Origin: a virus
Length of the DNA: 64,000 nucleotides
Virus record (IMG/VR): IMGVR_UViG_3300042898_000852
Span: 1-64,000 of that record
Strand: one strand, 5' to 3'
The notes under the pieces are model-generated. The model ran no database searches, was not told where the DNA came from, and saw only the letters and a list, made by a program, of their open reading frames with translations. Each line of letters begins with the position of its first letter. The stretch's first letter is position 1. Both the position numbers and the translations under genes were made by a program. Positions 46,046 to 59,973 of this stretch are shown here, one piece after another.

Positions 46046-46482
46046 AGATTCTTTTTTCTAACAGAGTTGATATCAATAACGCCAGTATTTACAGCGCCAC
46101 CAAAATCACCATCAACTACTACATTAGCACACAGTTCACGGAACCAACGATCCACAATTTCTTCGTCTTTGTCACCGTCAAAACCATATCCCTCTTGCTT
46201 TAATTTTAACACAAAAAGCTCGTTCCAGTCAAGCTCAAAAAAGCCATTACGTATGTTATCTTTGTTGATGTGTGTATTAAGCACCCCTACCCACGGTTCT
46301 TTCAATTTGGTTGCTCGATCTTTTGGACTTAGTTTGGCAGTTTCTTCTGCTTCTACAGCACGTTCTGCAGATGCAACTGCGTCTTTAGCAATCTTTGTGG
46401 ATTCTTCAGCCAACTGTACTGCTGCTGCTGTTTCGGCCTTGAGTTTATCAATGCCAAATAATTTTTCTACAAATCGTCTCAT
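46042..46482 (-). CDS. Hypothetical phage protein
   Basis: EPWV...GFFELDWN...IVDRWF; TGATG coupling to queE. Confidence 0.7.
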   Translation of the reverse strand: MRRFVEKLFGIDKLKAETAAAVQLAEESTKIAKDAVASAERAVEAEETAKLSPKDRATKLKEPWVGVLNTHINKDNIRNGFFELDWNELFVLKLKQEGYGFDGDKDEEIVDRWFRELCANVVVDGDFGGAVNTGVIDINSVRKKNL

Positions 46483-47327
46483 CAAGTACCCCACTCATTT
46501 TTAAATAACGGCACTTGTAATCTATCACTATAACGCCATCCACGTTTCATAGCTGCCAGTGCCACATTCTTTGCGTTGAGTGTATAAACACTTTCCACAC
46601 CACCAACTGGCATTAGATAAACATGCCCGTTAAATCCAGCATTACGGAATGCACCCACAGCACATTCAGCATCTGAAATATCCTGCTCTGTTGCAACAAC
46701 AAATTTAAGATAAACTGTTCCTACTTGTTCATACTCACACACAATTTCTGGACAGATAGCTTCCTCCCACTTCTCTCCACTTGCTGGAAGTTTAGCACTT
46801 ACACTGAATGTAAGTTCTTTATTATCTGTCCATTCAATTAGATATTCTTTAAATTTAGGATCAAGTTTTTGAGTACCATTTGTTTCAAAAGTAATCTCTT
46901 GCAAGTCACGCATCTTAGGATGATCTAGTAGATCTGGATAAGCACGTTGCCACCCTAACAATGGTTCGCCGCCTGTAATAACTAAGTGTTCGTCAATCCA
47001 ATGATCCTGCGGAAGCATTTCCATAATTCGATCTACAATAGCTTCGCTAGTAAGCATAGGCGACAAATCTTTAAAGCGTGGATCCCAACTAGCATAGCTG
47101 TCACAGCCTGTGCTAACAAGTGGCAAATCTTTATAATCCTTGTAAGGAATATTGTCGTGAGCAAAAGCAATAGTTTCAACTTCTGTACTTATTTCACCCC
47201 GCGGCATACCGAAGCCTGCACATTTAAAGTTACAGCCGAAGGTTCTAAGGAACACACTGGGCACCCCCATATATCTACCCTCGCCCTGTATAGAGTAGAA
47301 AAGTTCCGCTATTTTAATCTTGCTCAT
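46482..47327 (-). CDS. queE: 7-carboxy-7-deazaguanine synthase (radical SAM)
   Basis: ELFYSIQGEG, FLRTFGCNFKC, CDS, VITGGEPL, ETNGT, YSDRLQ motifs. Confidence 0.92.
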   Translation of the reverse strand: MSKIKIAELFYSIQGEGRYMGVPSVFLRTFGCNFKCAGFGMPRGEISTEVETIAFAHDNIPYKDYKDLPLVSTGCDSYASWDPRFKDLSPMLTSEAIVDRIMEMLPQDHWIDEHLVITGGEPLLGWQRAYPDLLDHPKMRDLQEITFETNGTQKLDPKFKEYLIEWTDNKELTFSVSAKLPASGEKWEEAICPEIVCEYEQVGTVYLKFVVATEQDISDAECAVGAFRNAGFNGHVYLMPVGGVESVYTLNAKNVALAAMKRGWRYSDRLQVPLFKNEWGT

Positions 47328-47781
47328 GCTCAACCCCACTTTTAAATATATTTGACCATTTTTTTAATTTGGCAATTTTGTTACCTGCTGCCGCAAGCAC
47401 TTCCTCTTTATCTACTATATTATGATCAATACAAAGATCGATCATGGCCTGTAAATCTCCTAGTTCTTCTGCTAGATGTTGTCTGTTAGTAAGTGGCTTA
47501 CCGGGTTTGACATTATCTAAACCGAATCGACTTATCTTGCTGATAGCAACAATTACTTCTGCACATTCCTCTTGAGTAATGTCTAGGATTTCTTTTTCTT
47601 TATTATTCATATTACTAGTATACACTCTTTTTGTCAAAGACCAAGAGCCATTTTGATTATCTTTCCAGTCTAATACATCACCTTCTTTCCAACCTGTTTC
47701 TTCGATCATATCTTCAGGGAATGGTAGTATCAAGTCACCGGTTTCGGGATCGTCTTGTAGTTCAATTGTCCAATTTTTCAA
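47314..47781 (-). CDS. AbrB/MazE-like domain fused in frame to a MazG-like NTP pyrophosphohydrolase (internal ATG at 47610)
   Basis: TTG start after AGGAG; GDLILPFPEDMIEETGWKEGDVL (AbrB-like); QEECAEV...EELGDL (MazG-like). Confidence 0.7.
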   Translation of the reverse strand: MKNWTIELQDDPETGDLILPFPEDMIEETGWKEGDVLDWKDNQNGSWSLTKRVYTSNMNNKEKEILDITQEECAEVIVAISKISRFGLDNVKPGKPLTNRQHLAEELGDLQAMIDLCIDHNIVDKEEVLAAAGNKIAKLKKWSNIFKSGVEHEQD

Positions 47782-48283
47782 TGCTAACTCCTGATTTTTT
47801 AAGGAACTCGATTCCTGCATCGTCTCTATAGTTTTCACCGTAGTAGACACCATTTATGCCAGACTGGTATATAAGTTTGGCGCATTCAATACAAGGGGCA
47901 TGAGTAATAAAAATATCAGCACCAAGCCCACTTTCATTGGACTTTGCCAATTTTGCAATAGCATTTGATTCAGCATGAAGTACTTCTGGTTTAGTTTTTA
48001 AGGCATATCTTCTAGCATATCCTAGATCGGGATCGATATCCTCTTCTTCAAATGGCCATCGATCATAAATCTCTTCGGGGCTTAGCCAACCCCCAGCATC
48101 ACCGCCCATGTACTCTTTGTGCTCACAATCATTATTCCAACCTGCCGGCATACCATTGTAGCCAATACTAATAATACGATCATCTTTAACAACAATAGCA
48201 CCAACGTGCAATCTACGTGCGTGACTAAGTTCTGCGAATACCTTTGCGGTCTTCATATAAGTTTGTTTGAACTTTTCCTTCAT
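47762..48283 (-). CDS. dCMP deaminase
   Basis: VGAIVV, GYNG, HAESNAI, PCIECAK motifs. Confidence 0.93.
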   Translation of the reverse strand: MKEKFKQTYMKTAKVFAELSHARRLHVGAIVVKDDRIISIGYNGMPAGWNNDCEHKEYMGGDAGGWLSPEEIYDRWPFEEEDIDPDLGYARRYALKTKPEVLHAESNAIAKLAKSNESGLGADIFITHAPCIECAKLIYQSGINGVYYGENYRDDAGIEFLKKSGVSIEKLDN

Positions 48284-48464
48284 TTTGTTTCTTCCATTCT
48301 TGTTGTTTAAGTTCTCGACATTGCTTTTTTACTTCTACGGGAATATCAGGATGCCATTCAGCCATACCACAATCGTATACTCTATATTCAGGCATTGGTG
48401 TCAGACTGAGTACTACTACCCACATTAAAAATCCTATTGCAAATCCCACTAGATATTTTGTCAT
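48225..48464 (-). CDS. Small membrane-anchored hypothetical protein
   Basis: N-terminal hydrophobic helix; YDCxxAEWHPDIP...C. Confidence 0.6.
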   Translation of the reverse strand: MTKYLVGFAIGFLMWVVVLSLTPMPEYRVYDCGMAEWHPDIPVEVKKQCRELKQQEWKKQNEGKVQTNLYEDRKGIRRT

Positions 48465-48655
48465 AGTCTATCACTTAGTAATAGATTACACATTAATACA
48501 TCTTGTTCTGTTTTAAAGAAAAATTTCATATAGTCTGCAGAAACTTCTGTGGTATATCTATGTCCCGGCAATCCGAAATGTTCAATTACCATAGCGCAAC
48601 TTTCGTTCCACCATTTATTTTCCTGCGAGTTCCAAGTTAGATTAACGACGTTCAT
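48461..48655 (-). CDS. Hypothetical phage protein
   Basis: WNESCA...FGLPG motif; coupled ORF. Confidence 0.6.
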   Translation of the reverse strand: MNVVNLTWNSQENKWWNESCAMVIEHFGLPGHRYTTEVSADYMKFFFKTEQDVLMCNLLLSDRL

Positions 48656-48833
48656 CAACTAATACTTTTCTAAACCTATGTGTAAAACTTTCTTTTAGGC
48701 ACGAATATTCGAGATTGTCTCGGAGACGCATATAGTGTACCCAAGTTTGATTTCCTATATCAACTACATAAATTACTCGAAAATATTCTCGAGCCCCTGC
48801 TTCCCACACTTCGCCATTACTAACTTCTTGCAT
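48642..48833 (-). CDS. Hypothetical phage protein
   Basis: Start MQEVS; YSCLxESF motif. Confidence 0.55.
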   Translation of the reverse strand: MQEVSNGEVWEAGAREYFRVIYVVDIGNQTWVHYMRLRDNLEYSCLKESFTHRFRKVLVDERR

Positions 48834-49287
48834 TTTTAGCCCTTTCAGATAGATATGTTTCATTATGAATCCACCTGTTATTTACTAAAAATCCCCATTC
48901 ACGCTTTTGCGGCCCTGGCATAAACATAGTCCAGGCAGTCACACTAGGATCAAGCTCAATACGATGATAGCTGTTAGCCCTACATACACGAAAATGGCCG
49001 GGTCCTCGCCATTTACATATCTCATTAAATTTACGACCCTGTTCGTCAAATTGAGGAATCCATTCATAATATCCACCTTTAAGTATTAGTGTTGCGTATG
49101 GCCAAGGATGATCATGAACATCATCTGGATCTGATTTAAGAAATTTATGAATAAAAACATTAAACGGAAACCAATCTCTATCTTTTAGAAAAACGTAATA
49201 TCTTTCAAGATATGGCTGATCGTTCACACGATCCATTATGATTCTTTTACGTTCTAATCGTTCTAAAAAATCGAGAAACCATTTCAT
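48820..49287 (-). CDS. Cupin-fold metal-binding protein (possible dioxygenase)
   Basis: HDHPW...GGYYE...HRIEL cupin metal motifs. Confidence 0.7.
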   Translation of the reverse strand: MKWFLDFLERLERKRIIMDRVNDQPYLERYYVFLKDRDWFPFNVFIHKFLKSDPDDVHDHPWPYATLILKGGYYEWIPQFDEQGRKFNEICKWRGPGHFRVCRANSYHRIELDPSVTAWTMFMPGPQKREWGFLVNNRWIHNETYLSERAKNARS

Positions 49288-49508
49288 TTACAAGTCTCCA
49301 GAAATTCATTTAACCTATGGGCAGCCTCGTTAAAATCTACAGCCCAAACCTTTGCTTTAATTTGATTATCAACAATACTCATATCAAACGGAACAACGCC
49401 ATTAAATCTGAAGTTATCTGGGACTTCGGTAGTGACAGTAAACTCGTGCAAGTTCTTCGCTCTAAAAATAAGATTAGTTGCCATGTCTACTGAATTCATA
49501 TTATCCAC
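49284..49508 (-). CDS. Hypothetical phage protein
   Basis: Coupled ORF. Confidence 0.6.
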   Translation of the reverse strand: MDNMNSVDMATNLIFRAKNLHEFTVTTEVPDNFRFNGVVPFDMSIVDNQIKAKVWAVDFNEAAHRLNEFLETCK

Positions 49509-50010
49509 CTTGTGTTGAGTCTTTTGGAAATACTTCGCTGAACGGCCACGATGTATTTGGATCTGGGCGAGATTTAAGTTTTACATTTTCTTCAATAACT
49601 GTACCATCATCTTCGCACAGGTCAATTTGATACGGTGCAATAATATGTACGGCAGTGTCTTCTTCTGCCCAATCATGCTCGCCGTCAAATAACCAACCTG
49701 CTCCACCTTCGTAGTAGAGTTCTTTTAGTTCTTGCTGTTCTAGTTCACCAATGTCATCACTGAATTCCCACTCAACGCTAACACTGTCATCAAACTCACA
49801 GCCCCAACCACAATCGGTTCGAGCATAGGCAACTGTATCACCTTCCCAGGGAAGATTGCAATCTAAATCACCTTCGACAAAACCTTGACCCCAACGATAT
49901 GTTTCGTCAATGTTAAACCAACTGACGCTATCATCGGGGTTCCTACGATACATTTCTACATGGTAGACAATGCTTTTCTTTTCTAATGGTTTGATTACGT
50001 ATACAGTCAT
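49501..50010 (-). CDS. Acidic hypothetical phage protein
   Basis: ORF in operon. Confidence 0.65.
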   Translation of the reverse strand: MTVYVIKPLEKKSIVYHVEMYRRNPDDSVSWFNIDETYRWGQGFVEGDLDCNLPWEGDTVAYARTDCGWGCEFDDSVSVEWEFSDDIGELEQQELKELYYEGGAGWLFDGEHDWAEEDTAVHIIAPYQIDLCEDDGTVIEENVKLKSRPDPNTSWPFSEVFPKDSTQGG

Positions 50011-50011
50011 A

Positions 50012-50125
50012 TTAGAGTTCCATAATAAAATATTTCGATGCAGGATATTGCGTCTGCAACCATTCTAACAGGCCTTCTTCAACTGGCAAACGAACGCTGT
50101 CAAATTTGTTAGTAATGTATCTCAT
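50012..50125 (-). CDS. Small 37-aa ORF (MRYITNKFDSVRLPVEEGLLEWLQTQYPASKYFIMEL), below the ORF-track cutoff
   Basis: ATGA overlap with the folE stop; ends 1 nt before the next ATG, filling the gap. Confidence 0.65.
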   Translation of the reverse strand: MRYITNKFDSVRLPVEEGLLEWLQTQYPASKYFIMEL

Positions 50126-50868
50126 CGCGGTGCAAACTCCTGTTGTAGTTTAATATTGTCAAAGAATTCTTTCTTTGTATGTGGATCATCTTTAAATGAA
50201 CCTTTCAATACAGTAGTCTGTGTTAGACTTGAGTGTGCCATGATGCCGCGATTCTCACAACAGCCATGAACTGCCTGCACGTAGACTGCTACGTTTTCTG
50301 ATTCGGTTGCTTTGCTGATTTCGCGGGCGATGTCGTTGCACAATTCTTCTTGTAATGTTCCACGACGAGCACACCACTGTGCTATTCTGGTATACTTTGA
50401 GAGACCAATAAGTTTATTAGCGGCAATGATACCGATGTAGGCAACCCCAGAAACAGGCTGGTGGTGATGAGAACACATACTTCGTAGCTCACTACGTACC
50501 ACAAGCATACCCTCGTAACGGTCGGCGCTGTCATTTGGAAAAGCTGTTGCATCTGGTGCCGGATCATATCTACCTGCCATTACTTCGTTAAAATACATTT
50601 TAGCAAGACGTCTTGCGGTACCTTTACTATTGGGATCGGTTTCGCGATCAATAAGTAATTTATCAAGCACTTGTTCAAATGCAGGTGTTGCTTCGTCAAT
50701 TAGTTTCTCTAGATCACCTTGCCAAAGGTATTCACTAATATTGTCACCGGCCCAAAATCTTTTACCATCACGTTTCATTTTAAAGCGAATATGGTCGCCT
50801 AGGTAAGCTTCTGAATATCCGCCATCGCCTGCCATTGCGTCTAGGCCTGTTTCTGTTTTATCTGTCAA
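50122..50868 (-). CDS. folE: GTP cyclohydrolase I (TTG start)
   Basis: TARRLAKMY, SMCSHH, IGLSKYTR, LQEEL, HGCCENRGI motifs. Confidence 0.95.
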   Translation of the reverse strand: MTDKTETGLDAMAGDGGYSEAYLGDHIRFKMKRDGKRFWAGDNISEYLWQGDLEKLIDEATPAFEQVLDKLLIDRETDPNSKGTARRLAKMYFNEVMAGRYDPAPDATAFPNDSADRYEGMLVVRSELRSMCSHHHQPVSGVAYIGIIAANKLIGLSKYTRIAQWCARRGTLQEELCNDIAREISKATESENVAVYVQAVHGCCENRGIMAHSSLTQTTVLKGSFKDDPHTKKEFFDNIKLQQEFAPR

Positions 50869-50908
50869 TTTATATTCTCCGAGTTAGTGTCGTGGATGAC
50901 ATACATTA

Positions 50909-52009
50909 TTATTTTAACATCTTTAATAGTTGAGTGCAACTAAAAAAGTTTTCTTTCAGTATATCTACTTGTTTATTTAGGCTAGGCAAGAATTTTTCGT
51001 AATTATTCATGTATTGAATAATCTTATTACAAATATCAGGTCTGTGTGCCTCGTATGCACTATAGCTTTCAGTCCATTCGCTAGGATATTTAAATGTATC
51101 TAATGCCATTTCGCTGTAGCTTAGTCTATCGGGAACCATAGGAATCGCATCTACAATAGCACCTTCATACCAACTGATGCCAAGCGTTTCTTGTAGGTTA
51201 GCACTGAATATCAGTTTAGCTTCTCCTAACAAATTGTGATATTCATTTTTGGTCAACTGTTGATCTTGACAAACAACAAATTCATATTGCGGCAACTGAT
51301 GTTTTAGATCACGGAAAATTTCTACCTGCTTCTCAGGAGCAATTCGATGTGGGAACAAGATAAGATCACGCTTGGGCATACCTTTGTACATTGCTAATGT
51401 ATCCTGCATATACTCCATGGGCCAACCTGTGCGTACAAACTTAGGATACTCGCCTGCAAGTATTTCTTTAAGTTCTTCTTCGTACCAAGGATTTTCTACA
51501 GAATGCCCATTGTTCAACAGTTCTCTATTAAACATTTCTATATGAAAGTCAGTGGCAAAGTAGTTGTGATCAAAGGCTGAAAAGAATGATTTCTCTGCAT
51601 TACGCACCCAAGGCTTATTACCAACAAGTCTGCCTAGAAAGTCTTGAGGATCATAACTGCCAGCATGCCACAAGCCATGTGTAACAACTGGAATGCCCAG
51701 CAGTTCACTCATGTACTTGAGATTGATGATGCCAGGGTGCCAAGCATCAGTAAATAAGAAGTGATCATTGGCGCGAATGCTTCCGTCGCAAAATAACCGA
51801 CCCATCTGCTCAACTTGACTAGCCTTGTAGATATTAGTGCCGCCAAAGTTGAGAAATGCCCCAGGAGTGGTAGCACTAGGAATATCCGTAGGACCTGATA
51901 TAATGTTGACATTGTGTCCTGCCTTTCGTAGGAGGGTAGGTACATGAGTCTTCCATTGACCAGTGTACCTTGTCTCGACTGCTTCTAGATCAACGAGAAA
52001 AACTGTCAT
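50909..52009 (-). CDS. GT-B glycosyltransferase (GT4-like; resembles the QTMAN/GTDC1 C-terminal domain)
   Basis: Likely start MTVFLVDLE at 52009; FPHRIAPEKQ...EYHNLLGEAKLIFSANLQETLGISWYEG...PMVPDRLSYSE contains the EX7E motif. Confidence 0.8.
   Translation of the reverse strand: MTVFLVDLEAVETRYTGQWKTHVPTLLRKAGHNVNIISGPTDIPSATTPGAFLNFGGTNIYKASQVEQMGRLFCDGSIRANDHFLFTDAWHPGIINLKYMSELLGIPVVTHGLWHAGSYDPQDFLGRLVGNKPWVRNAEKSFFSAFDHNYFATDFHIEMFNRELLNNGHSVENPWYEEELKEILAGEYPKFVRTGWPMEYMQDTLAMYKGMPKRDLILFPHRIAPEKQVEIFRDLKHQLPQYEFVVCQDQQLTKNEYHNLLGEAKLIFSANLQETLGISWYEGAIVDAIPMVPDRLSYSEMALDTFKYPSEWTESYSAYEAHRPDICNKIIQYMNNYEKFLPSLNKQVDILKENFFSCTQLLKMLK
50911..50939 (-). promoter_or_regulatory. Sigma70-type promoter for folE
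   Basis: Minus strand TTGCAC-N17-TAAAAT with extended TG. Confidence 0.55.
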
Positions 52010-52265
52010 TGCGCTGACGGAAGTTATTGTTTCCGCTACGATTGTACTCGCCGCGATTGTTAGTGTACTCACCACGTGGACGACGTGGGCGTGTGCTGTA
52101 GTAATAATTATTCCAAATCTGACTATCTCTATTGTAGAGATTAGCCTCGTTAAAATCACACAGTTCAAAGCGACAGAAGTCTTTAAACTTTTCCAGATCA
52201 TCAAAGATTTTAACAATGTCTGGACGATCTTCGAAATACGAAACGTTTTTATAATTCTTAGCCAT
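51990..52265 (-). CDS. Hypothetical protein with an R/N-rich, probably disordered C-terminus
   Basis: AGGA SD; this frame explains the region better than the 5' extension of the GT ORF. Confidence 0.7.
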   Translation of the reverse strand: MAKNYKNVSYFEDRPDIVKIFDDLEKFKDFCRFELCDFNEANLYNRDSQIWNNYYYSTRPRRPRGEYTNNRGEYNRSGNNNFRQRNDSFSR

Positions 52266-52279
52266 TTTAGCTTTTCCTA

Positions 52280-52669
52280 TTAATACTTAATAAATGAACC
52301 ATTTTCTCCGTCTTCGGAGACCTCAATCCAAACCTCACGGTTGGGATACTTTTTGGAGATAGCGTCATATAAATCACCTGACATCATCTCACAACTCTTG
52401 TAGTCTAACGCTAGTATACTATCTTTATAAAGATTTAGCAACCATCGTTTGAACTGAATAAACTCAATATCGCGATCATCGTGTGTTACACCTATCCAAA
52501 CTTTAAAGTGGAAGATATGGCGATGCGGATAGCCTAGAAAACTTACATCATACTCGTCACCTGTAGCAAGATTAGCGTCTGTAAGTGCGGCTGGATATTT
52601 GTGCATACCTTCTTTGTTAAAGGTAACCCAAATCATTTTGTTTGGTCGAATGTCTTGTTTAATAATCAT
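52280..52669 (-). CDS. QueD-like T-fold protein with the DpdL-type motif (putative CDG decarboxylase rather than canonical QueD)
   Basis: LGYPHRHIF matches LxxxHRHxF and lacks the QueD CxxxHGH motif; SCE and EVSEDGEN T-fold motifs. Confidence 0.75.
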   Translation of the reverse strand: MIIKQDIRPNKMIWVTFNKEGMHKYPAALTDANLATGDEYDVSFLGYPHRHIFHFKVWIGVTHDDRDIEFIQFKRWLLNLYKDSILALDYKSCEMMSGDLYDAISKKYPNREVWIEVSEDGENGSFIKY

Positions 52670-52893
52670 ACTGATAACAATCCTTTGGCAAATGTTTGAA
52701 TTTCTTCTTTAGTCATATGGAAGTTATAGGTGCTGGTAAAATCTACTTGACCGTTGTCATTGAGGCATTCTTGAATAACATCAAGAGATAAGCAACCTTT
52801 AGGACTTACTGCTTCCCATGATTCTACACGCACTCTAAATGCAGAATCTTCTTTAACTGTAAACTTTTTTACTTTTAAACTTTCGTGTTTCAT
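52666..52893 (-). CDS. Hypothetical phage protein
   Basis: Coupled ORF. Confidence 0.6.
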   Translation of the reverse strand: MKHESLKVKKFTVKEDSAFRVRVESWEAVSPKGCLSLDVIQECLNDNGQVDFTSTYNFHMTKEEIQTFAKGLLSV

Positions 52894-53252
52894 CTCAAAC
52901 TCTCCATAGTGATAATTTTTGCTAGCTCTTCACCTAGGTCTTTATCGTCTGTGACCACGTGCAGACTGTGTCTATGATCGTCCTTTTGACGATCATACTT
53001 GGTTGTTTCAATAATAGTTCCACCACCAGCACTGTAAACATTTAATCTAAACCCTTGTGACTGAATGTTTGGCCCTTCACTGTCAACGCTGATAACATTT
53101 CCACTGTAATCGGCACTATCATCCATTATCCAGTTTCGAATTCTTTGTTTAAATGTTAGTTTCATAGGTTTATTTGTCATGTATGATCTGGTCATTGATT
53201 TCTGCAATCGATTAACGGACTTAGCAGTCGAGGCATACGGGTTTGTTGCCAT
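52890..53252 (-). CDS. Hypothetical phage protein
   Basis: Coupled ORF. Confidence 0.65.
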   Translation of the reverse strand: MATNPYASTAKSVNRLQKSMTRSYMTNKPMKLTFKQRIRNWIMDDSADYSGNVISVDSEGPNIQSQGFRLNVYSAGGGTIIETTKYDRQKDDHRHSLHVVTDDKDLGEELAKIITMESLR

Positions 53253-53785
53253 TATTTGATAATCTCATCTTTGCCATATTGATCCCAACTAGTAAACTTA
53301 TTTCTATCTAGTAGGTCATGGAGGTTATGGCACCACACTCCGGGATTAGTTGCTTTAAAATCTTTGTCGTCTATCTTTATTGTAGCATTATATCCCAGCT
53401 GTTGTAAATAGGGCAGTTTAACCGAAATCTGTGGAATGAACTGACGCTTCTCAACCAGACCGCTTTCAAGAAGTCCTTCTACTTGTGCTAGATCTAGATC
53501 TAGTGTACACCAAAATTCATCATCGGCATCTAGACAAACATAGATCATATTTTCCCAAAGACGCCATTGATCTGCATCGTTGAATTTTAGATTAGGAAAA
53601 CTTTGATTAGCACCAAAGTAGATGTGAGTACATCTATGGTTGCGAGCAAGTTCCATGATCATATACTCGTCGTGTACACCTGTTACAAACAAAGTTTTCA
53701 TTCCGTAAGCAGGAGTCTTTTCGATCTCGATTCCTGTAAAGAATGTGATGCTGTCTGCAACACCTGATTCGTAATTTCTTTTCAT
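53252..53785 (-). CDS. Enzyme-like hypothetical protein in the deazaguanine cluster
   Basis: FFTGIEIEKTPAYGMKTLFV...HIYFGANQSF...KIDDKDFKATNPGVWC; alpha/beta pattern. Confidence 0.7.
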   Translation of the reverse strand: MKRNYESGVADSITFFTGIEIEKTPAYGMKTLFVTGVHDEYMIMELARNHRCTHIYFGANQSFPNLKFNDADQWRLWENMIYVCLDADDEFWCTLDLDLAQVEGLLESGLVEKRQFIPQISVKLPYLQQLGYNATIKIDDKDFKATNPGVWCHNLHDLLDRNKFTSWDQYGKDEIIK

Positions 53786-54198
53786 TCTGCAAACCTTTCT
53801 TTCATACGTTGTTGACGTTCTGCTTCGTGATGATCACAGAGAGTCTTAATCCACCCACCTTGTCTACTTTTACCAGGAGCACCACATTCTTCACAACTGG
53901 CATCGGCCCACGTTTCCGCCATACGAACCATTCCATTGATATTTTCGTCACCACCATCGTAGTAGAAACGTAGTCCGCCAAACTTCTCTTTAATCTGTGC
54001 TACTGTTACCTGCGGCACTACTTCAGACTGTTTGTTCTTCCAATCAATATGATGCTGAATATTACTGCACAACTTTTCTAGAATTGGCCACCAACCTTCA
54101 CCACATGCAAATCCACCATACTTACCACTAAACATCTTTGGAAATCGTTCTTCCATGTGTTTGGCAAAAGCGTCATATTTTTCAAATTCGTCACTCAT
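53782..54198 (-). CDS. Hypothetical phage protein (QIKEKFGGLRFY motif, C-terminal CxxC Zn site)
   Basis: GEGW, QIKEKFGGLRFY, CEECG...TLC motifs. Confidence 0.7.
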   Translation of the reverse strand: MSDEFEKYDAFAKHMEERFPKMFSGKYGGFACGEGWWPILEKLCSNIQHHIDWKNKQSEVVPQVTVAQIKEKFGGLRFYYDGGDENINGMVRMAETWADASCEECGAPGKSRQGGWIKTLCDHHEAERQQRMKERFAE

Positions 54199-54386
54199 TA
54201 CCAAGTACTCACGTCAGTGTTATCAACTTTAATATCCTTGCCCAGCAATTCAAAATGAACTGTTGTGGTAGGCCCAATACCACTAGAGTGTTCCTCAACA
54301 ATTTCAAATTGAGGAACCTCCGGAAAACGATTGGCAATATCTGTCAATGTTTTAATTTGAGTCTGTGTTAATATATATTTTTTCAT
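54198..54386 (-). CDS. Hypothetical phage protein
   Basis: SSGIG motif; TAATG/ATGA coupling. Confidence 0.6.
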   Translation of the reverse strand: MKKYILTQTQIKTLTDIANRFPEVPQFEIVEEHSSGIGPTTTVHFELLGKDIKVDNTDVSTW

Positions 54387-54592
54387 CGCTCGTCATCAAA
54401 GTCAACAGTTTCGTGATCGTGTTCCCATTGCTTACGTCTTAGTATAGCAAGTTCGTCTCTTAAAAGCAACCTCTGTTTCTTCAATTCTTGCATTTTCATA
54501 TCTTCAAACAGTCCATTCTTTTCTAGTGTATCGATTTTTTGGTCCAACACTCTATGAGATTCCTCTAAATGTTTAATTCTGTTTTCGTACAT
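54383..54592 (-). CDS. DUF465/YdcH-like coiled-coil protein
   Basis: LEESHRVLDQKI...LKKQRLLLRDEL pattern. Confidence 0.7.
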   Translation of the reverse strand: MYENRIKHLEESHRVLDQKIDTLEKNGLFEDMKMQELKKQRLLLRDELAILRRKQWEHDHETVDFDDER

Positions 54593-54601
54593 AGTTACTC
54601 C

Positions 54602-56137
54602 TTATTCAGCTACAAGTTTATCCAATTCACCATCTTCACGATCGTCGTTCCATGAGTCTTTATCTTCGCTGCCTTCTTCGTAGAACAGGTCATTAGAGAT
54701 ATTTGTAACACCACCACGTAGGCGTGAGCCTTCCAAATTCTGCATAAAGCCTCTGGTCTCTGCATCAGCAATCATTTCAAATGCAGATTCTTTGTTAGGA
54801 CAATTAAACAGTTCTTCAACAAAGCGATCAAAGTACAAGATGTTGCGTGGAACCCAATCACTGTACTCATCACTCATATCACGATCTTTGTTTTTCTTCC
54901 ACATTCTCCAGTCAGGTCGAATCTTAGCTTGTTCAATATCTGCCAAGTTGTTAGCACGTTGTACAGCAACAATGTGTTGATAGACATTATGTCCCATCAT
55001 TAGTGCATAACCGAAGCTATCCCACGATGTTTTGCCTTCTTTACCGATCTTGTTTAACATTCCTGGCTTGTAATGACACACATCTGAAACATTAAGTCTA
55101 CGTCCAATTTCGCTTTCGAACGGAAACGGAATGTCTGGACGTGATGCAAGTGCTTTGTTATCTGGGGCCTTGTCCATAATAACACTCCAACGCTTGGCTG
55201 TATGCTGACTGTTAGTATAGACCAGTCCGTGTGCAGTTGCAATAAACGGTGATGCACAGTCAAAGCTGATGGTAAAGTTAGGATTGACGTGTTTACGGAT
55301 CTGACGTTGAATACTGGTCAAGTAGCATGACCAATCTAACTGTGCAGTACCCAAGAAGTGCATCCAATCCTTGCCTTCTAACATACCGTCGAAGCGCATA
55401 GTGATCAATCGGCGAAGAGTAATATGCATCTTGCACATGTTAGCACCGCCCATCGCCCAACCTTCGGCGGCTTTATCGCCCCAGACAGTCTTGTCACTGA
55501 ACTCTTTAACGCCTTCATACCATGCTTCAGCAGTATCCCAGTTACTGCCCTGTAGAACGTTTAAGAACTTAGTAGCACCTAAACGATTTTCTAAGAAGTA
55601 CTTGTTGTTGTGACGAGTTTTTTCTAGACAGTCTTCAAAAGACTTCAATCCAGTCTTTGGGGAGTGAATATGATCGCAGGCCCAAGTCGGAACGTCAAGC
55701 ATCATTGACCAGTCAGCAGTTAATTCAAGCCAGTTAAGAATATCATCTCGAGTTTTGTTAGCTGCTTTACCTTCAAAGTCTAGCCAATCAAACTTAAGAA
55801 TACCTTTACCAATCTGATAACCGCCAGAGTCACCCAAGATCATTGTCTTGCTACGATCACGTTGTTGAATCATTGAATCATGATCCATTGTTTTAGTAAG
55901 ATCTAATTGTGCGTGACCTGCTGAATACAAACCATACTTGTAATAAAAGTATCCTTGCTCCGGGTTTAAAAAGTTCATACCTTCAATGCCACGATCAAAT
56001 CCTTTAGGAATACGATCTTTAGGTACGAACTCTTCCTTACGTTGTTTTGCAATGTAAGTGCTGTAGAAACTACTGATTGCAGGCAAATAGACTGCGTAGT
56101 CTTTCTGTAGGGGTGTTAAATCAACTGGTTGTTTCAT
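54602..56137 (-). CDS. dpdA: TGT-fold transglycosylase, DpdA-like (7-deazaguanine insertion into DNA)
   Basis: GDSGGYQ (TGT DSGG motif), MMLDVP, VLQG, GWAMGG, HFLG, SFDCASP, HN; clustered with folE/queE and next to replication genes. Confidence 0.82.
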   Translation of the reverse strand: MKQPVDLTPLQKDYAVYLPAISSFYSTYIAKQRKEEFVPKDRIPKGFDRGIEGMNFLNPEQGYFYYKYGLYSAGHAQLDLTKTMDHDSMIQQRDRSKTMILGDSGGYQIGKGILKFDWLDFEGKAANKTRDDILNWLELTADWSMMLDVPTWACDHIHSPKTGLKSFEDCLEKTRHNNKYFLENRLGATKFLNVLQGSNWDTAEAWYEGVKEFSDKTVWGDKAAEGWAMGGANMCKMHITLRRLITMRFDGMLEGKDWMHFLGTAQLDWSCYLTSIQRQIRKHVNPNFTISFDCASPFIATAHGLVYTNSQHTAKRWSVIMDKAPDNKALASRPDIPFPFESEIGRRLNVSDVCHYKPGMLNKIGKEGKTSWDSFGYALMMGHNVYQHIVAVQRANNLADIEQAKIRPDWRMWKKNKDRDMSDEYSDWVPRNILYFDRFVEELFNCPNKESAFEMIADAETRGFMQNLEGSRLRGGVTNISNDLFYEEGSEDKDSWNDDREDGELDKLVAE

Positions 56138-56506: not shown

Positions 56507-57244
56507 TTAGGCCGCCTGTGCTGGAATGATATATTTGTAAGTAGCAAGTCCGCTGTCCAAAGTAATCTGAATAGCACCTTCATTGCTCAAGGACATCTTT
56601 GTGTTGTTGACATCTGCAATCTTGAGAATACTCAAGATTGGTAGCACTGGCCAAGTCCAACCACGATCTAATTTACCAGTAATGCCCATGGCAAATATAA
56701 ACTCTCCGCCGTGTGTTGAAGCATCGCCAAAGATAAATTTCAATTTATCACCATCAGTCTTTGCCAAGAATGTTGGATGTTCGTTGTTAGCACCTGCTTG
56801 AAAGTTGAAACGTTGCACAGCACTAACTGTGGGTTCAACCTCCACGTCCCACTTAACACCTCGAAACTTAACTGTTTTCATTTTTTCATTAATGATCTCA
56901 GTATTCATAAAACGATAATCGTTTTTAAAATCGCCATCTTTGTTTTCAAAGTGTAGACCAGTTGGAATTGTTTCGCCATTGCGATCTGCGGTAGTGATAC
57001 TAATCTTGGCATTTTCTTTGTACTCAGCACCGTCTAACAAATATTTTAATTTGTTTAGTTGCGGCATACCAAATACACCCATCATATCTGGATACGGTGC
57101 ATTAGTTTCAGCTTCCATAATCACTGAACGGTCCTCAGCCATTGAATTGATCACGGTTTTATTTTGATCGCCGGTGACTTTAACTGTGGTTAAAAAGCCT
57201 AGGTTCTGTGTGTGCGATACGATATCTTGTAAAATGTCTTTCAT
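56507..57244 (-). CDS. DNA polymerase sliding clamp (gp45-like)
   Basis: 245 aa, directly downstream of the polymerase; C-terminal GAIQITLDSGLATYKYIIPA is clamp-like. Confidence 0.7.
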   Translation of the reverse strand: MKDILQDIVSHTQNLGFLTTVKVTGDQNKTVINSMAEDRSVIMEAETNAPYPDMMGVFGMPQLNKLKYLLDGAEYKENAKISITTADRNGETIPTGLHFENKDGDFKNDYRFMNTEIINEKMKTVKFRGVKWDVEVEPTVSAVQRFNFQAGANNEHPTFLAKTDGDKLKFIFGDASTHGGEFIFAMGITGKLDRGWTWPVLPILSILKIADVNNTKMSLSNEGAIQITLDSGLATYKYIIPAQAA

Positions 57245-57303: not shown

Positions 57304-59973
57304 TTACTCAAAGTCAAACAATTTTGCAAATGTGTTATCACTGCGAGTTGAACTGATATCCCATTCCAAGACACCAATCAAGTTTTCTAGCTTTTCATCG
57401 ATGACTGCGTTTTCCATTTCAGCATCGTTGAAGGGCAAGTCTTTGAACCATTGAGGTAATCTCAGTTCATCTACCGGATAGGCCACTGATGTATACCCCA
57501 TTGGATTATCTTTGACCTTGCAGACAATGACTTTAGCACCGTCTGTAATGGCTACAGAGTATTTGTCATCCATCATACGTTTCAAAGTATTCCAGTTAAG
57601 ACTTGCTCGAACGTGTCCGGGCATGTTAGTCTTACCTGCTTTCTTTTCTTTGTCGCGATATTGAGAAATGTTATTGGCACGTTTTGGACTACCCTTCTCC
57701 CAACCCGGTCTAGTTTTAAATTCAGTGCGGAAGTTAGTGATATATTCTAACACTTCCTCCTTACCTGCACCGTTGAGCACTTTAGTAAGTACTTCACTAA
57801 GAAAATCTTGAATTACTACAGGAGTATCAGATCTTTTTAAATCAAGTCCCATTGCTTTGATTTTTCCAGGAGTACCCCCAGTGTCTGTTCTTTTTCCTTC
57901 TTTGTCGTAATAAAGGACTGCATATCTCTTCTTGGTGATGAATAGTCCTTTGGAAGCAACAATCTCGCGACCTGCTTTGATGACCTCTCCTCGAGACTTC
58001 GGGCAGTGAAAAGCATCTTGCATAAATTTTGGGAAAGTTCCATTGACAGTTTCTCCTATAGTATCATAAAGTTCAACAACTGATTCCTTACTCCAAGGAA
58101 TTGCTCCTTTCTCAATGTCCTTCTTTAACGTAGCATACGCTGAGAAGTAACAAGAGTCTGTGTCACCGTAAATGATTGCTTTGCCTATATGATCATTTTC
58201 TCCGGTGATAATTTCGTTTACTTTACCTGCCATGTGACGAGCAATGGCACGCCCTGTAAGTGTAGTCGACTGTCCAATTCGATTGTCAAAGAAACGGCAA
58301 CCTGGATTCAAAATAGCACCATACAGGCTGTTCAAGTTAATTTTCTTGACCAACTGACGTTTGTCCCAATATTCTTCTTCAATTTTATTACCGGCTGCAA
58401 TACAATCCTTTAACTTAGCCTGCATGTCTTTACGTTCAGCATACCACCGCTTGAGTAGTCCTGGAATGATACCTTCTTTCTCATAGGTAAAGATTGTACC
58501 GTTTGCTGAAAGCATCCAAGGCTGATTACTTTCAAAGATTAGATCATAGGCCTGTGCTGCACTTAGTGTATCTACTCCTCCATCTTCCCAATCAATAGTA
58601 ATTTCTCTTCCAACATTTCGTTCTAACACAGCGGAATATTCTAGTGAACCAAATACGCCTTCCCATGCTGATGCAAATGATTTACCTTTAGCAATTTCGG
58701 CAGCAATATAATCTTTAGTACCATCTTGACGCAGTTGTCCTACAATAGTTTCCGGACCCATGTTCAACGCTCTAATTGCAGAGGGATACAATGAATTAAT
58801 GTCTAATGAGCCAATCCACTCGTGAATGCCTTTTTTGGGATAAGCAACATAAGCACCAGCGGCTTGATTACTAAATCCTTCCTCTCGACTTATTCTATTA
58901 GGAACAATCATTCCGCGTTTGTGAGCTTCGTTGATAATGGCCTGCTCTGTAACAGCCACCGCACCCATTGTTGTTTGAAGTAGCACAGTACATTCATGAG
59001 CCAGTGTGTTAGCAAGGGCTAAGAACTTTAATTTCTTGTCCAACTTTTCCAATAGCATACAGTCTTGTCTATTGTATTCGATAAATCTACGGAAGTCATT
59101 GTTGTACAATTGATCAAGTGTGCCTTCGTAGACAGTTTTATTTTCTCCAATCTCCATCTCACCGATAGCATCTAATCGATATGTATGACGTTCTTCATAT
59201 GTGTATTTTCGATATAGTTCGAGACTGTCTAAGTGTACACGACCTATAAGATCATATGTAACCGCAGCCTTGCCATACTTTTCGTATTCACGTTTCTTGG
59301 GGAATTGATTCCATAAACAAAAACGTCTTGTATCTTCTTTACTGAGCACTTTGGTAACACGATTAACTGTATAAGGAATATCAAAGCCTTCTGAGTTCCA
59401 ACCACTCAGTACATCCGCATCTTGTATTAAATCCAAGAACATGTCTAACATATCTGCTTCGTTATCAAACAAATAAGTGTTAGGAAATTCTTCGACCTGC
59501 TTCTTAGCTTCTTCCATACTCAACGTTTTGGGCGGAATTGCCAAACAGATCATGGTCTGCATCCATTGTAGGTAGACAGCAATGGCAGTGATTGGCATAA
59601 ATGCATCTTCTGGTGATGCATAGCCACGTTCTGGATCAAAGTCTACCTCAATGTCAAAGAACGCTATGTTTAATTTTGGTGCGTCTTGATTGAGATAATG
59701 ATCTTCCAGGCAACGATATATGGGATTGATATCACTTTCAAACAGTTTTTTGTTTGAATGAATTGCAAGTTCTTTGCGATGTTCTTTGACATTTTTGGAA
59801 CTCACTCTTGAAAGAGGTTGTCCAAAAATACTTGTGAATTTACCCTTGGCGTCTGGGTAATAAAATATATGACGGGCAGGGTATTCTTTGTAATGCCGTT
59901 CGCCTTTATCATTGCGCTCAACAACATTGATGATATCCTGCTCTCGATTATAGAAAGCGTCTACGTAACTCAA
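57304..59973 (-). CDS. Family B DNA polymerase (gp43-like), TTG start
   Basis: Exonuclease motifs FDIEV, GWNSEGFD, YNRQD; polymerase motifs DINSLYPS, KINLNSLYG, YGDTDS, KKRYA. Confidence 0.97.
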   Translation of the reverse strand: MSYVDAFYNREQDIINVVERNDKGERHYKEYPARHIFYYPDAKGKFTSIFGQPLSRVSSKNVKEHRKELAIHSNKKLFESDINPIYRCLEDHYLNQDAPKLNIAFFDIEVDFDPERGYASPEDAFMPITAIAVYLQWMQTMICLAIPPKTLSMEEAKKQVEEFPNTYLFDNEADMLDMFLDLIQDADVLSGWNSEGFDIPYTVNRVTKVLSKEDTRRFCLWNQFPKKREYEKYGKAAVTYDLIGRVHLDSLELYRKYTYEERHTYRLDAIGEMEIGENKTVYEGTLDQLYNNDFRRFIEYNRQDCMLLEKLDKKLKFLALANTLAHECTVLLQTTMGAVAVTEQAIINEAHKRGMIVPNRISREEGFSNQAAGAYVAYPKKGIHEWIGSLDINSLYPSAIRALNMGPETIVGQLRQDGTKDYIAAEIAKGKSFASAWEGVFGSLEYSAVLERNVGREITIDWEDGGVDTLSAAQAYDLIFESNQPWMLSANGTIFTYEKEGIIPGLLKRWYAERKDMQAKLKDCIAAGNKIEEEYWDKRQLVKKINLNSLYGAILNPGCRFFDNRIGQSTTLTGRAIARHMAGKVNEIITGENDHIGKAIIYGDTDSCYFSAYATLKKDIEKGAIPWSKESVVELYDTIGETVNGTFPKFMQDAFHCPKSRGEVIKAGREIVASKGLFITKKRYAVLYYDKEGKRTDTGGTPGKIKAMGLDLKRSDTPVVIQDFLSEVLTKVLNGAGKEEVLEYITNFRTEFKTRPGWEKGSPKRANNISQYRDKEKKAGKTNMPGHVRASLNWNTLKRMMDDKYSVAITDGAKVIVCKVKDNPMGYTSVAYPVDELRLPQWFKDLPFNDAEMENAVIDEKLENLIGVLEWDISSTRSDNTFAKLFDFE

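Follow-up and report, generated by a model that had tools for sequence, protein, structure and literature searches.

What does a glycosyltransferase do within a gene cluster for 7-deazaguanine modification of DNA? The question is raised by the IMG/VR virus record IMGVR_UViG_3300042898_000852, a 77.9 kilobase (kb) contig with a CheckV completeness of 22%, of which the first 64 kb (64,000 nucleotides) constitute the window analyzed here. An earlier note on this DNA had described a minus-strand gene run after the polymerase and clamp that encodes a DpdA-like protein with the tRNA-guanine transglycosylase fold, a T-fold protein, a GT-B glycosyltransferase (GT), FolE, a cupin, a dCMP deaminase, a MazG-like protein, and QueE, and had proposed that the phage inserts a deazaguanine base into its DNA and then glycosylates it. 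Every gene that it named was confirmed, with the minus strand as coding strand and 46482-56137 as the span. FolE, QueD, and QueE convert GTP to 7-carboxy-7-deazaguanine (CDG), and DpdA exchanges the base in DNA. The locus encodes a module of the DpdA/DpdL type, without QueC, for modifying DNA with 7-deazaguanine, and GT is a conserved member of this module that adjoins DpdA and/or DpdL in about 150 metagenomic loci. We think that the module most plausibly yields DNA with a deazaguanine that bears a sugar, a reading which we hold at about even chances and for which we infer the acceptor, the donor sugar, the timing of the transfer and the persistence of the sugar alike. The genes of the window on which the argument turns are the following.

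54602..56137, minus strand: DpdA-like DNA-guanine transglycosylase of the large subfamily, 511 amino acids (aa), assigned from an AlphaFold2 model, Foldseek matches and invariant motifs
52280..52669, minus strand: predicted DpdL, a QueD-like T-fold protein of 129 aa and proposed CDG decarboxylase (motif LGYPHRHIF; phrog_17812, 1e-28)
50909..52009, minus strand: predicted GT4-like retaining GT-B glycosyltransferase (GT), 366 aa, assigned from an AlphaFold2 model, Foldseek matches and conserved residues
50122..50868, minus strand: FolE, GTP cyclohydrolase I (PF01227, 5.2e-39; phrog_2197, 5e-44)
46482..47339, minus strand: QueE, CDG synthase (phrog_2076, 2e-51; NCBIfam QueE models)

Among cultured phages, GT was recovered by tblastn in 22 isolate records that represent six lineages. 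It abuts a DpdA of the large subfamily (here, proteins of 400-570 aa) in Pseudomonas phage PA5oct, Acidovorax phage ACP17, Xanthomonas phage BUDD, and Burkholderia phage BCSR5, and it lies beside DpdL in the window (with a 91-aa open reading frame (ORF) in between), Sinorhizobium phage Phosso, PA5oct, and ACP17; the DpdA of Phosso is encoded elsewhere in the genome, away from GT. In each isolate context opened but one, that of PhiXhv-12, GT adjoins DpdA and/or DpdL, and this adjacency persists across lineages with ~26% identical polymerases and differing gene orders. Both FolE and QueE are encoded within a few kb of GT in all lineages but one, the exception being PA5oct, whose cluster has no FolE that could be found nearby. 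Outside the PhiXhv-12 group, every GT-bearing record (17 out of 17) is also among the 28 records that carry DpdL.

These observations bear on the possibility that GT has a target unrelated to deazaguanine, such as hydroxymethyl-pyrimidines, a phage or host protein, or an envelope precursor, and that its position reflects co-regulation with early DNA-metabolism genes. PhiXhv-12, the one member of its group of five that was opened, lends some weight to this possibility: its GT homolog (L006, 123041-124144) has GlmS and an LmbE-type deacetylase as neighbors and is ~95 kb away from the gene for DpdA, a setting that hints at an amino-sugar variant, and no DpdL was found in this phage. In addition, some sources label family members as 'glycosyltransferase involved in cell wall biosynthesis', and the nearest folds (BshA, MshA, and PglA) use small molecules or lipid-linked sugars. 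However, the DpdA/DpdL adjacency and the co-occurrence with DpdL described above argue against an unrelated target, and the PhiXhv-12 genome itself carries a DpdA of this large type (6e-89, local profile), together with FolE and with a QueE whose annotation reads 'GTP 3',8-cyclase' (1.6e-42) (loci L173:4555-6261 and L174:11391-12290). Moreover, no member of the thymidylate-synthase family PF00303, to which the known hydroxymethylases belong, occurs in the contig, in a 98%-complete relative, in ACP17, or in BUDD, and hydroxymethyl-pyrimidines are therefore unlikely as the GT target. Taken as a whole, a target outside the deazaguanine pathway appears improbable to us.

The metagenomic loci extend the linkage well beyond isolates. 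Neighbors within 10 kb of GT were scored in two sets of IMG/VR loci, 80 of them close and 69 more distant, many of which are cut by contig ends. DpdL is found near GT in 71 of the 80 close loci, in 55 of 61 loci from a group whose GT is ~34% identical to that of the window, and, in two further GT groups of four loci each, in all four and in three, respectively; for two distant GT queries no viral contigs were found. The co-occurrence and synteny of GT with dpdA, folE, and queE, by which the earlier note had suggested that its proposal be checked, is strongly positive in isolates as well as in both sets of loci. The source phage abounds in metagenomes: GT is matched by more than 8000 proteins and DpdA by a similar number, with ~80-98% identity for the top 120 in either case. 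At 50% identity, 1073 clusters match GT, and the GT family is mostly viral and spans more than 1000 sequence clusters.

Two features of the metagenomic loci deserve a separate description. The gene order in the distant GT group is QueE, FolE, DpdL, a radical SAM enzyme of 440-460 aa, GT, and a protein of 326-415 aa, with the radical SAM gene placed between DpdL and GT (L105:8679-9998, L119:8576-9937, L132:8344-9693, and L134:8595-9989). For the protein downstream of the distant GT, the ESM Atlas gave a lead toward DpdA (score 0.93), and its hhalign comparison with the DpdA profile was not significant. One viral contig encodes two GT paralogs (L087:1584-2639 and L087:10001-11092), one beside FolE and the other beside DpdL, which could correspond to two successive or alternative sugar transfers.

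The most likely translation start of GT is the ATG at 52009, giving a protein of 366 aa, because its homologs, 364-367 aa long, cover 99-100% of this protein in alignments. The TTG at 52216, at which the ORF opens, is disfavored as the start, and the 270 upstream bases hold the separate 91-aa ORF. An AlphaFold2 model of GT, derived from an alignment of 58 diverse members (28-90% identity) with a predicted local distance difference test score (pLDDT) of 95, contains two Rossmann-like domains with a GT-B fold. Its closest structural matches by Foldseek (E-values of 2e-10 to 1e-7) are BshA, which is best at 2e-10, a GT4 enzyme from Bacillus anthracis, MshA, glycogen/starch synthases, and PglA. 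The window protein itself has no match in Pfam (including PF00534), PHROG, NCBIfam, or PDB sequences; PF00534 (Glycos_transf_1) is matched by 40 of the 58 family members (best 1.3e-8), and the family profile reaches PDB chain 8xsg, a glucosyltransferase, at 4.4e-4. Residues R222 and K227 (PHRIAPEK), E274 and E282 (ETLGISWYE), as well as H115 and G117, are invariant or nearly so across the 58 members. From what is known of GT4 enzymes, we take R222 and K227 to be the pair that binds the donor phosphates, and ExxxxxxxE to be the catalytic motif. Since these donor-binding and catalytic residues are conserved, GT looks catalytically intact, and the modeled fold assigns it to GT4-like retaining GT-B enzymes of a generic type.

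The GT-B part of the earlier assignment thus stands, while its label as queuosine-mannosyltransferase-like was not confirmed. Nothing in GT was found to be specific to queuosine mannosyltransferase (QTMAN): PF12038 (QTMAN_N) has no match in the contig at E-values up to 10 and is absent from the families matched by the 58 GT members, and the nearest folds are those of BshA, MshA, and glycogen synthase. The same residue conservation is pertinent to another possibility, namely that the protein retains a GT fold and no transferase activity, and that it merely assists the large DpdA, either structurally or in the handling of DNA. Such a partnership would agree with the abutment of GT and DpdA in four isolate lineages and with the inactivity of DpdA subfamily members expressed without GT; nevertheless, the putative active site is preserved down to 28% identity, and a vibriophage described below has a large DpdA without GT, so that we assign this possibility a very small probability.

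The 511-aa protein has no match in Pfam at E-values up to 10 (including the transglycosylase family PF01702 and the DpdA family PF23859), PHROG, or NCBIfam, or in PDB by sequence and by profile. Its AlphaFold2 model has a predicted template modeling score (pTM) of 0.76 with a confidently predicted core, and all 50 best Foldseek matches in PDB are tRNA-guanine transglycosylases (best 3.1e-7, probability 1.00). The residues D103 (GDSGGYQ) and D293 (SFDCASP) are invariant among 25 sequences, four of which are only 25% identical; we equate them, as an assumption, with Asp102 of the DSGG motif and the nucleophile Asp280 of the FDC motif in the Zymomonas transglycosylase. By fold and motifs, which are its only basis, the protein is a DpdA-like transglycosylase, in line with the earlier description, and a chain of profile matches joins it to the corresponding proteins of ACP17, BUDD, and PhiXhv-12.

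The T-fold protein reported in the window proved to be of a more specific type. DpdL is distinguished from QueD by the signature LxxxHRHxF in place of CxxxHGH, and has been proposed to act as a CDG decarboxylase (Cui, Hutinet et al., 2023, PMC10516641). The window protein carries the motif LGYPHRHIF, an exact instance of this signature, and aligns with phage phiST gp040 and the DpdL of ACP17, although the phiST DpdL is only ~30% identical. The signature is kept in 10 of 12 aligned DpdL homologs, including that of phiST, with PA5oct and Ahp1 having Phe in place of Arg (HFH), and the canonical QueD of a relative carries the Cys form of the motif. By motif and homology, the T-fold gene is dpdL, and the likely base is thus 7-deazaguanine rather than CDG. 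The claim that a base of the CDG or deazaguanine type is inserted and then glycosylated is partly supported, through the linkage, and its choice of base narrows to probable 7-deazaguanine.

The assignments of FolE and QueE, along with those of the dCMP deaminase and the MazG-like protein, agree with the earlier note through family matches, the sole match of the cupin being PHROG 4786. FolE scores 134 bits against PF01227 (curated cut-off, 27), and the five best NCBIfam matches of QueE are all QueE models (2e-16 to 5e-10, under the curated cut-offs), accompanied by weak matches to PF13353 and PF04055. The reported lack of QueC, QueD, and QueF holds for the whole 77.9 kb contig, in which none of the respective Pfam models has a match. 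The gap for QueD is probably an effect of the contig being a fragment, because a canonical QueD (1.5e-14) is encoded ~50 kb from the GT cluster in the 98%-complete relative, which shares 90% identity with the window in GT; QueD was found in three of five long relatives, including this one. The same relative encodes a 310-aa PP-loop protein (L104:991-1923, at ~71.4 kb), next to a fatty-acid desaturase and at a great distance from the deazaguanine genes; its match to the QueC model is confined to positions 4-68. Given this partial match, it was not accepted as QueC, which leaves some uncertainty.

Phages that carry related systems without GT are informative on the role of this enzyme. The DNA of phiST was measured to contain 100% plain 2'-deoxy-7-deazaguanosine (dDG) (PMC10516641), and vibriophage VP1 is reported to show complete dDG replacement by high-performance liquid chromatography-mass spectrometry (bioRxiv 2025.10.29.685425). 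Profile searches of whole genomes revealed neither GT nor a large-type DpdA in phiST, RHph_I1_18, and Ahp1, all of which carry DpdL. There is no Vibrio phage among the GT-bearing records, by which VP1 is presumed to have no GT. Thus, the phages with a chemically known deazaguanine have no GT, phiST by search and VP1 by inference. Another vibriophage, 2.275.O._10N.286.54.E11 (L175, 349 kb), encodes a large DpdA together with QueF, QueC, a Gat-like aminohydrolase, a YhhQ-like transporter, and FolE (330216-337242), and no GT was found in it; its DpdA is followed by an unassigned protein of 370 aa. GT accordingly tracks QueC-less systems that use a large DpdA.

It is also conceivable that GT belongs to the same pathway and that its sugar is transient, solubilizing, activating, or protecting the free deazapurine, or that it detoxifies or sequesters the base, so that the final base in DNA is plain 7-deazaguanine. 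The linkage would fit any role in the pathway, and no product other than dDG is known from DpdL systems (PMC10516641). Expression of ACP17 dpdL and dpdA (genes as designated by the authors) in E. coli yielded no dDG, for which the authors suggested that other enzymes may be needed (PMC10516641), and this could mean that a biosynthetic helper was missing. On the other hand, phiST achieves complete dDG replacement without GT and VP1 is not among the GT records, so GT is not needed for dDG, and no sugar-removing glycosidase was recognized in the module. We regard a transient sugar as rather unlikely, though less so than a target unrelated to deazaguanine.

We favor the sugar-bearing deazaguanine in DNA because GT looks intact, is locked into the module, and is dispensable for dDG, and because the other acceptors known in DNA are unlikely. 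In the proposed scheme, CDG would be made from GTP by FolE, by QueE, and by a QueD that presumably lies outside the contig, DpdL would remove its carboxyl group, and the TGT-fold DpdA would swap guanine in DNA for the resulting deazapurine. GT would use a nucleotide-sugar as donor and attach its sugar to the base derived from deazaguanine, acting either on DNA after the insertion or on the free base before the DpdA step; either way, virion DNA would contain a sugar-bearing deazapurine. Two published observations are counted in favor of this scheme: the inactivity of ACP17 dpdL and dpdA in E. coli, and the resistance of PA5oct DNA to five restriction enzymes with G-containing sites (PMC12191111), from which, along with the QueE and PTPS genes, a preprint on END nucleases inferred a modified G in this phage (PMC12191111).

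Several points weigh against glycosylated DNA. The weak point is chemical, as 7-deazaguanine has no hydroxyl group and its decoration needs C- or N-glycosylation or a hydroxylated intermediate, and we know of no retaining GT4-type enzyme that performs such C- or N-glycosylation. The candidates for making a handle vary by lineage (the cupin-like protein in the clade of the window, the radical SAM enzyme in the distant GT group) although GT is constant. The conserved neighborhood shows a shared pathway rather than the acceptor, and no GT-bearing phage was found with chemically analyzed DNA. The GT family is also acidic overall, with a median isoelectric point of 5.7, but this charge says little on DNA binding because the DpdA family, which necessarily binds DNA, is acidic as well. 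The possible routes would be C-glycosylation of the electron-rich pyrrole, N-glycosylation, or attachment to a handle provided by the cupin-like or radical SAM partners. In its specific form, we tentatively propose, at slightly below even chances, a new class of DNA base with a sugar linked through a C-glycosidic bond to a pyrrole carbon or through a lineage-specific handle, and installed by the GT4-like enzyme and the large DpdA.

The remaining genes of the region provide the context of the module.

57304..59973, minus strand: family B DNA polymerase at the start of the gene run (PF00136, 2.7e-34; PF03104, 4e-20; ~50% identity to the PA5oct and Phosso polymerases)
56507..57244, minus strand: sliding-clamp-like protein, 245 aa (~34% identity to a Phosso gene annotated as sliding clamp and to PA5oct EST35_0314)
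53782-54204, minus strand: 140-aa protein with CxxC pairs suggesting a zinc ribbon (found in 30 of 80 close loci, where its gene separates DpdA from the 177-aa protein)
53252..53785, minus strand: 177-aa protein of unassigned fold, module companion in this clade
51990..52265, minus strand: 91-aa ORF between DpdL and GT, read from the sequence
48820..49287, minus strand: cupin-like protein, 155 aa, clade-specific (phrog_4786 'cysteine dioxygenase', 1.7e-35)
47762..48283, minus strand: dCMP deaminase (PF00383, 6e-21)
47314..47853, minus strand: MazG-like nucleotide pyrophosphohydrolase (PF03819, 8e-5, a weaker match)

The cupin, MazG, and dCMP deaminase genes are present as the earlier note listed them, yet they are clade-specific or sporadic and were rejected as members of the module shared across lineages. 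The cupin-like gene occurs in 66 of the 80 close loci, often directly after GT, as in L072:11095-11553, where its start overlaps the GT stop, L054:11434-11913, and others; the window has FolE and two small ORFs between the two genes. The encoded protein has an invariant HDH...H pattern and was not found in Phosso, PA5oct, ACP17, BUDD, or BCSR5; it is a clade-specific candidate for the maker of a hydroxyl handle. MazG is found in 39 and dCMP deaminase in only 13 of the 80 close loci, and no MazG was found in other GT-bearing isolates.

The 177-aa protein may be a further member of the module: it is encoded between DpdA and DpdL in 67 of the 80 close loci, and a homolog lies directly upstream of DpdA in ACP17 (L003:8236-8721). 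It has no profile match in Pfam, NCBIfam, or PDB, and a profile search against PDB sequences was likewise negative for the cupin-like protein. The 91-aa ORF has a plausible ribosome-binding site and encodes a C-terminal tail that is basic and rich in Arg and Asn, and its 3' end overlaps with the start codon of GT; neither this ORF nor the 140-aa CxxC protein has a family match.

The source of the window is an uncultured jumbo phage, kin of PA5oct and Phosso, as follows from the similarity of its replication genes and from close relatives on contigs of up to ~353 kb. Identity to the counterparts in these two phages is 30-52% for the polymerase, the clamp-like gene, the 5'-3' exonuclease, and several small genes, and megablast of the region against the phage collection gave no match. 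The clamp-like protein has no Pfam match and owes its identity solely to homology with the annotated clamp of Phosso.

To our knowledge, the glycosylated DNA bases described to date are all hydroxymethyl-pyrimidines, namely those of T-even phages, base J, and the bases of phages with arabinosyl-hydroxymethylcytosine. In agreement with the statement of the earlier note that no glycosylated DNA derivative is known among the deazaguanines, the searchable literature, which lacks most subscription journals, contains no report of a sugar-bearing deazaguanine in DNA or of the GT module. Cui et al. (2023) mention no glycosyltransferase (PMC10516641). The module belongs with the known DpdA deazaguanine systems as a variant; its linkage is strong, and the interpretation given in the earlier note is partly supported. 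If the proposed base exists, it would be the first glycosylated purine analog in any genome, made by new nucleic-acid chemistry that may include an unusual glycosyltransfer to carbon or nitrogen, and it would be widespread because of the breadth of the mostly viral GT family. A sugar on the deazapurine might explain both the failed reconstitution of ACP17 DpdL and DpdA in E. coli and, in the candidate therapy phage PA5oct, the restriction resistance and the sensing by END nucleases. The GT family is abundant in metagenomes and is also available in the cultured phages PA5oct, ACP17, Phosso, BUDD, and BCSR5, and the subject bears on phage resistance to restriction and CRISPR, on bacterial sensing of modified DNA, and on artifacts in virome sequencing.

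Four known systems can be compared with the locus. In tRNA, QTMAN (GTDC1) adds a sugar to a 7-deazaguanine derivative in a nucleic acid, as is proposed here; however, its target is the cyclopentenediol hydroxyl of queuosine, a group that the pathway of the window does not make. The C-terminal domain of QTMAN belongs to the same broad superfamily as PF00534. The alpha- and beta-glucosyltransferases of phage T4, which act on 5-hydroxymethylcytosine, are likewise phage GT-B enzymes in a DNA base-modification pathway, and T4 also places a non-canonical base in DNA and decorates it with sugar afterwards. In contrast to T4, the window has no 5-hydroxymethyl-pyrimidine pathway, and the proposed acceptor is a purine analog without a hydroxyl group. 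The T4 enzymes are not among the 50 best fold matches of GT, and a cyanophage 'DNA alpha-GT' ranks 32nd in the viral library.

Among deazaguanine systems, that of phiST employs FolE, QueD, QueE, DpdL, and DpdA3 to produce dDG (PMC10516641). It resembles the window in having FolE, QueE, a DpdL with the LxxxHRHxF signature, a TGT-fold transglycosylase, adjacent replication genes, and MazG beside DpdL, and in lacking QueC. It differs in the absence of GT, in its DpdA3 of 259 aa, which is not matched by the large-DpdA profile, and in its plain dDG. The counterpart in PA5oct (Wroclawvirus), EST35_0316 to EST35_0322, shares with the window a block of polymerase, clamp-like gene, DpdA, GT, DpdL, and QueE. 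No homolog of the cupin-like protein or MazG of the window was found in PA5oct, and its genes are annotated as hypothetical; unlike in the window, GT precedes DpdL and abuts DpdA. At the protein level, the identity between the two is ~50% for the polymerase, 44% for DpdA, 38-39% for GT, and 55% for DpdL.

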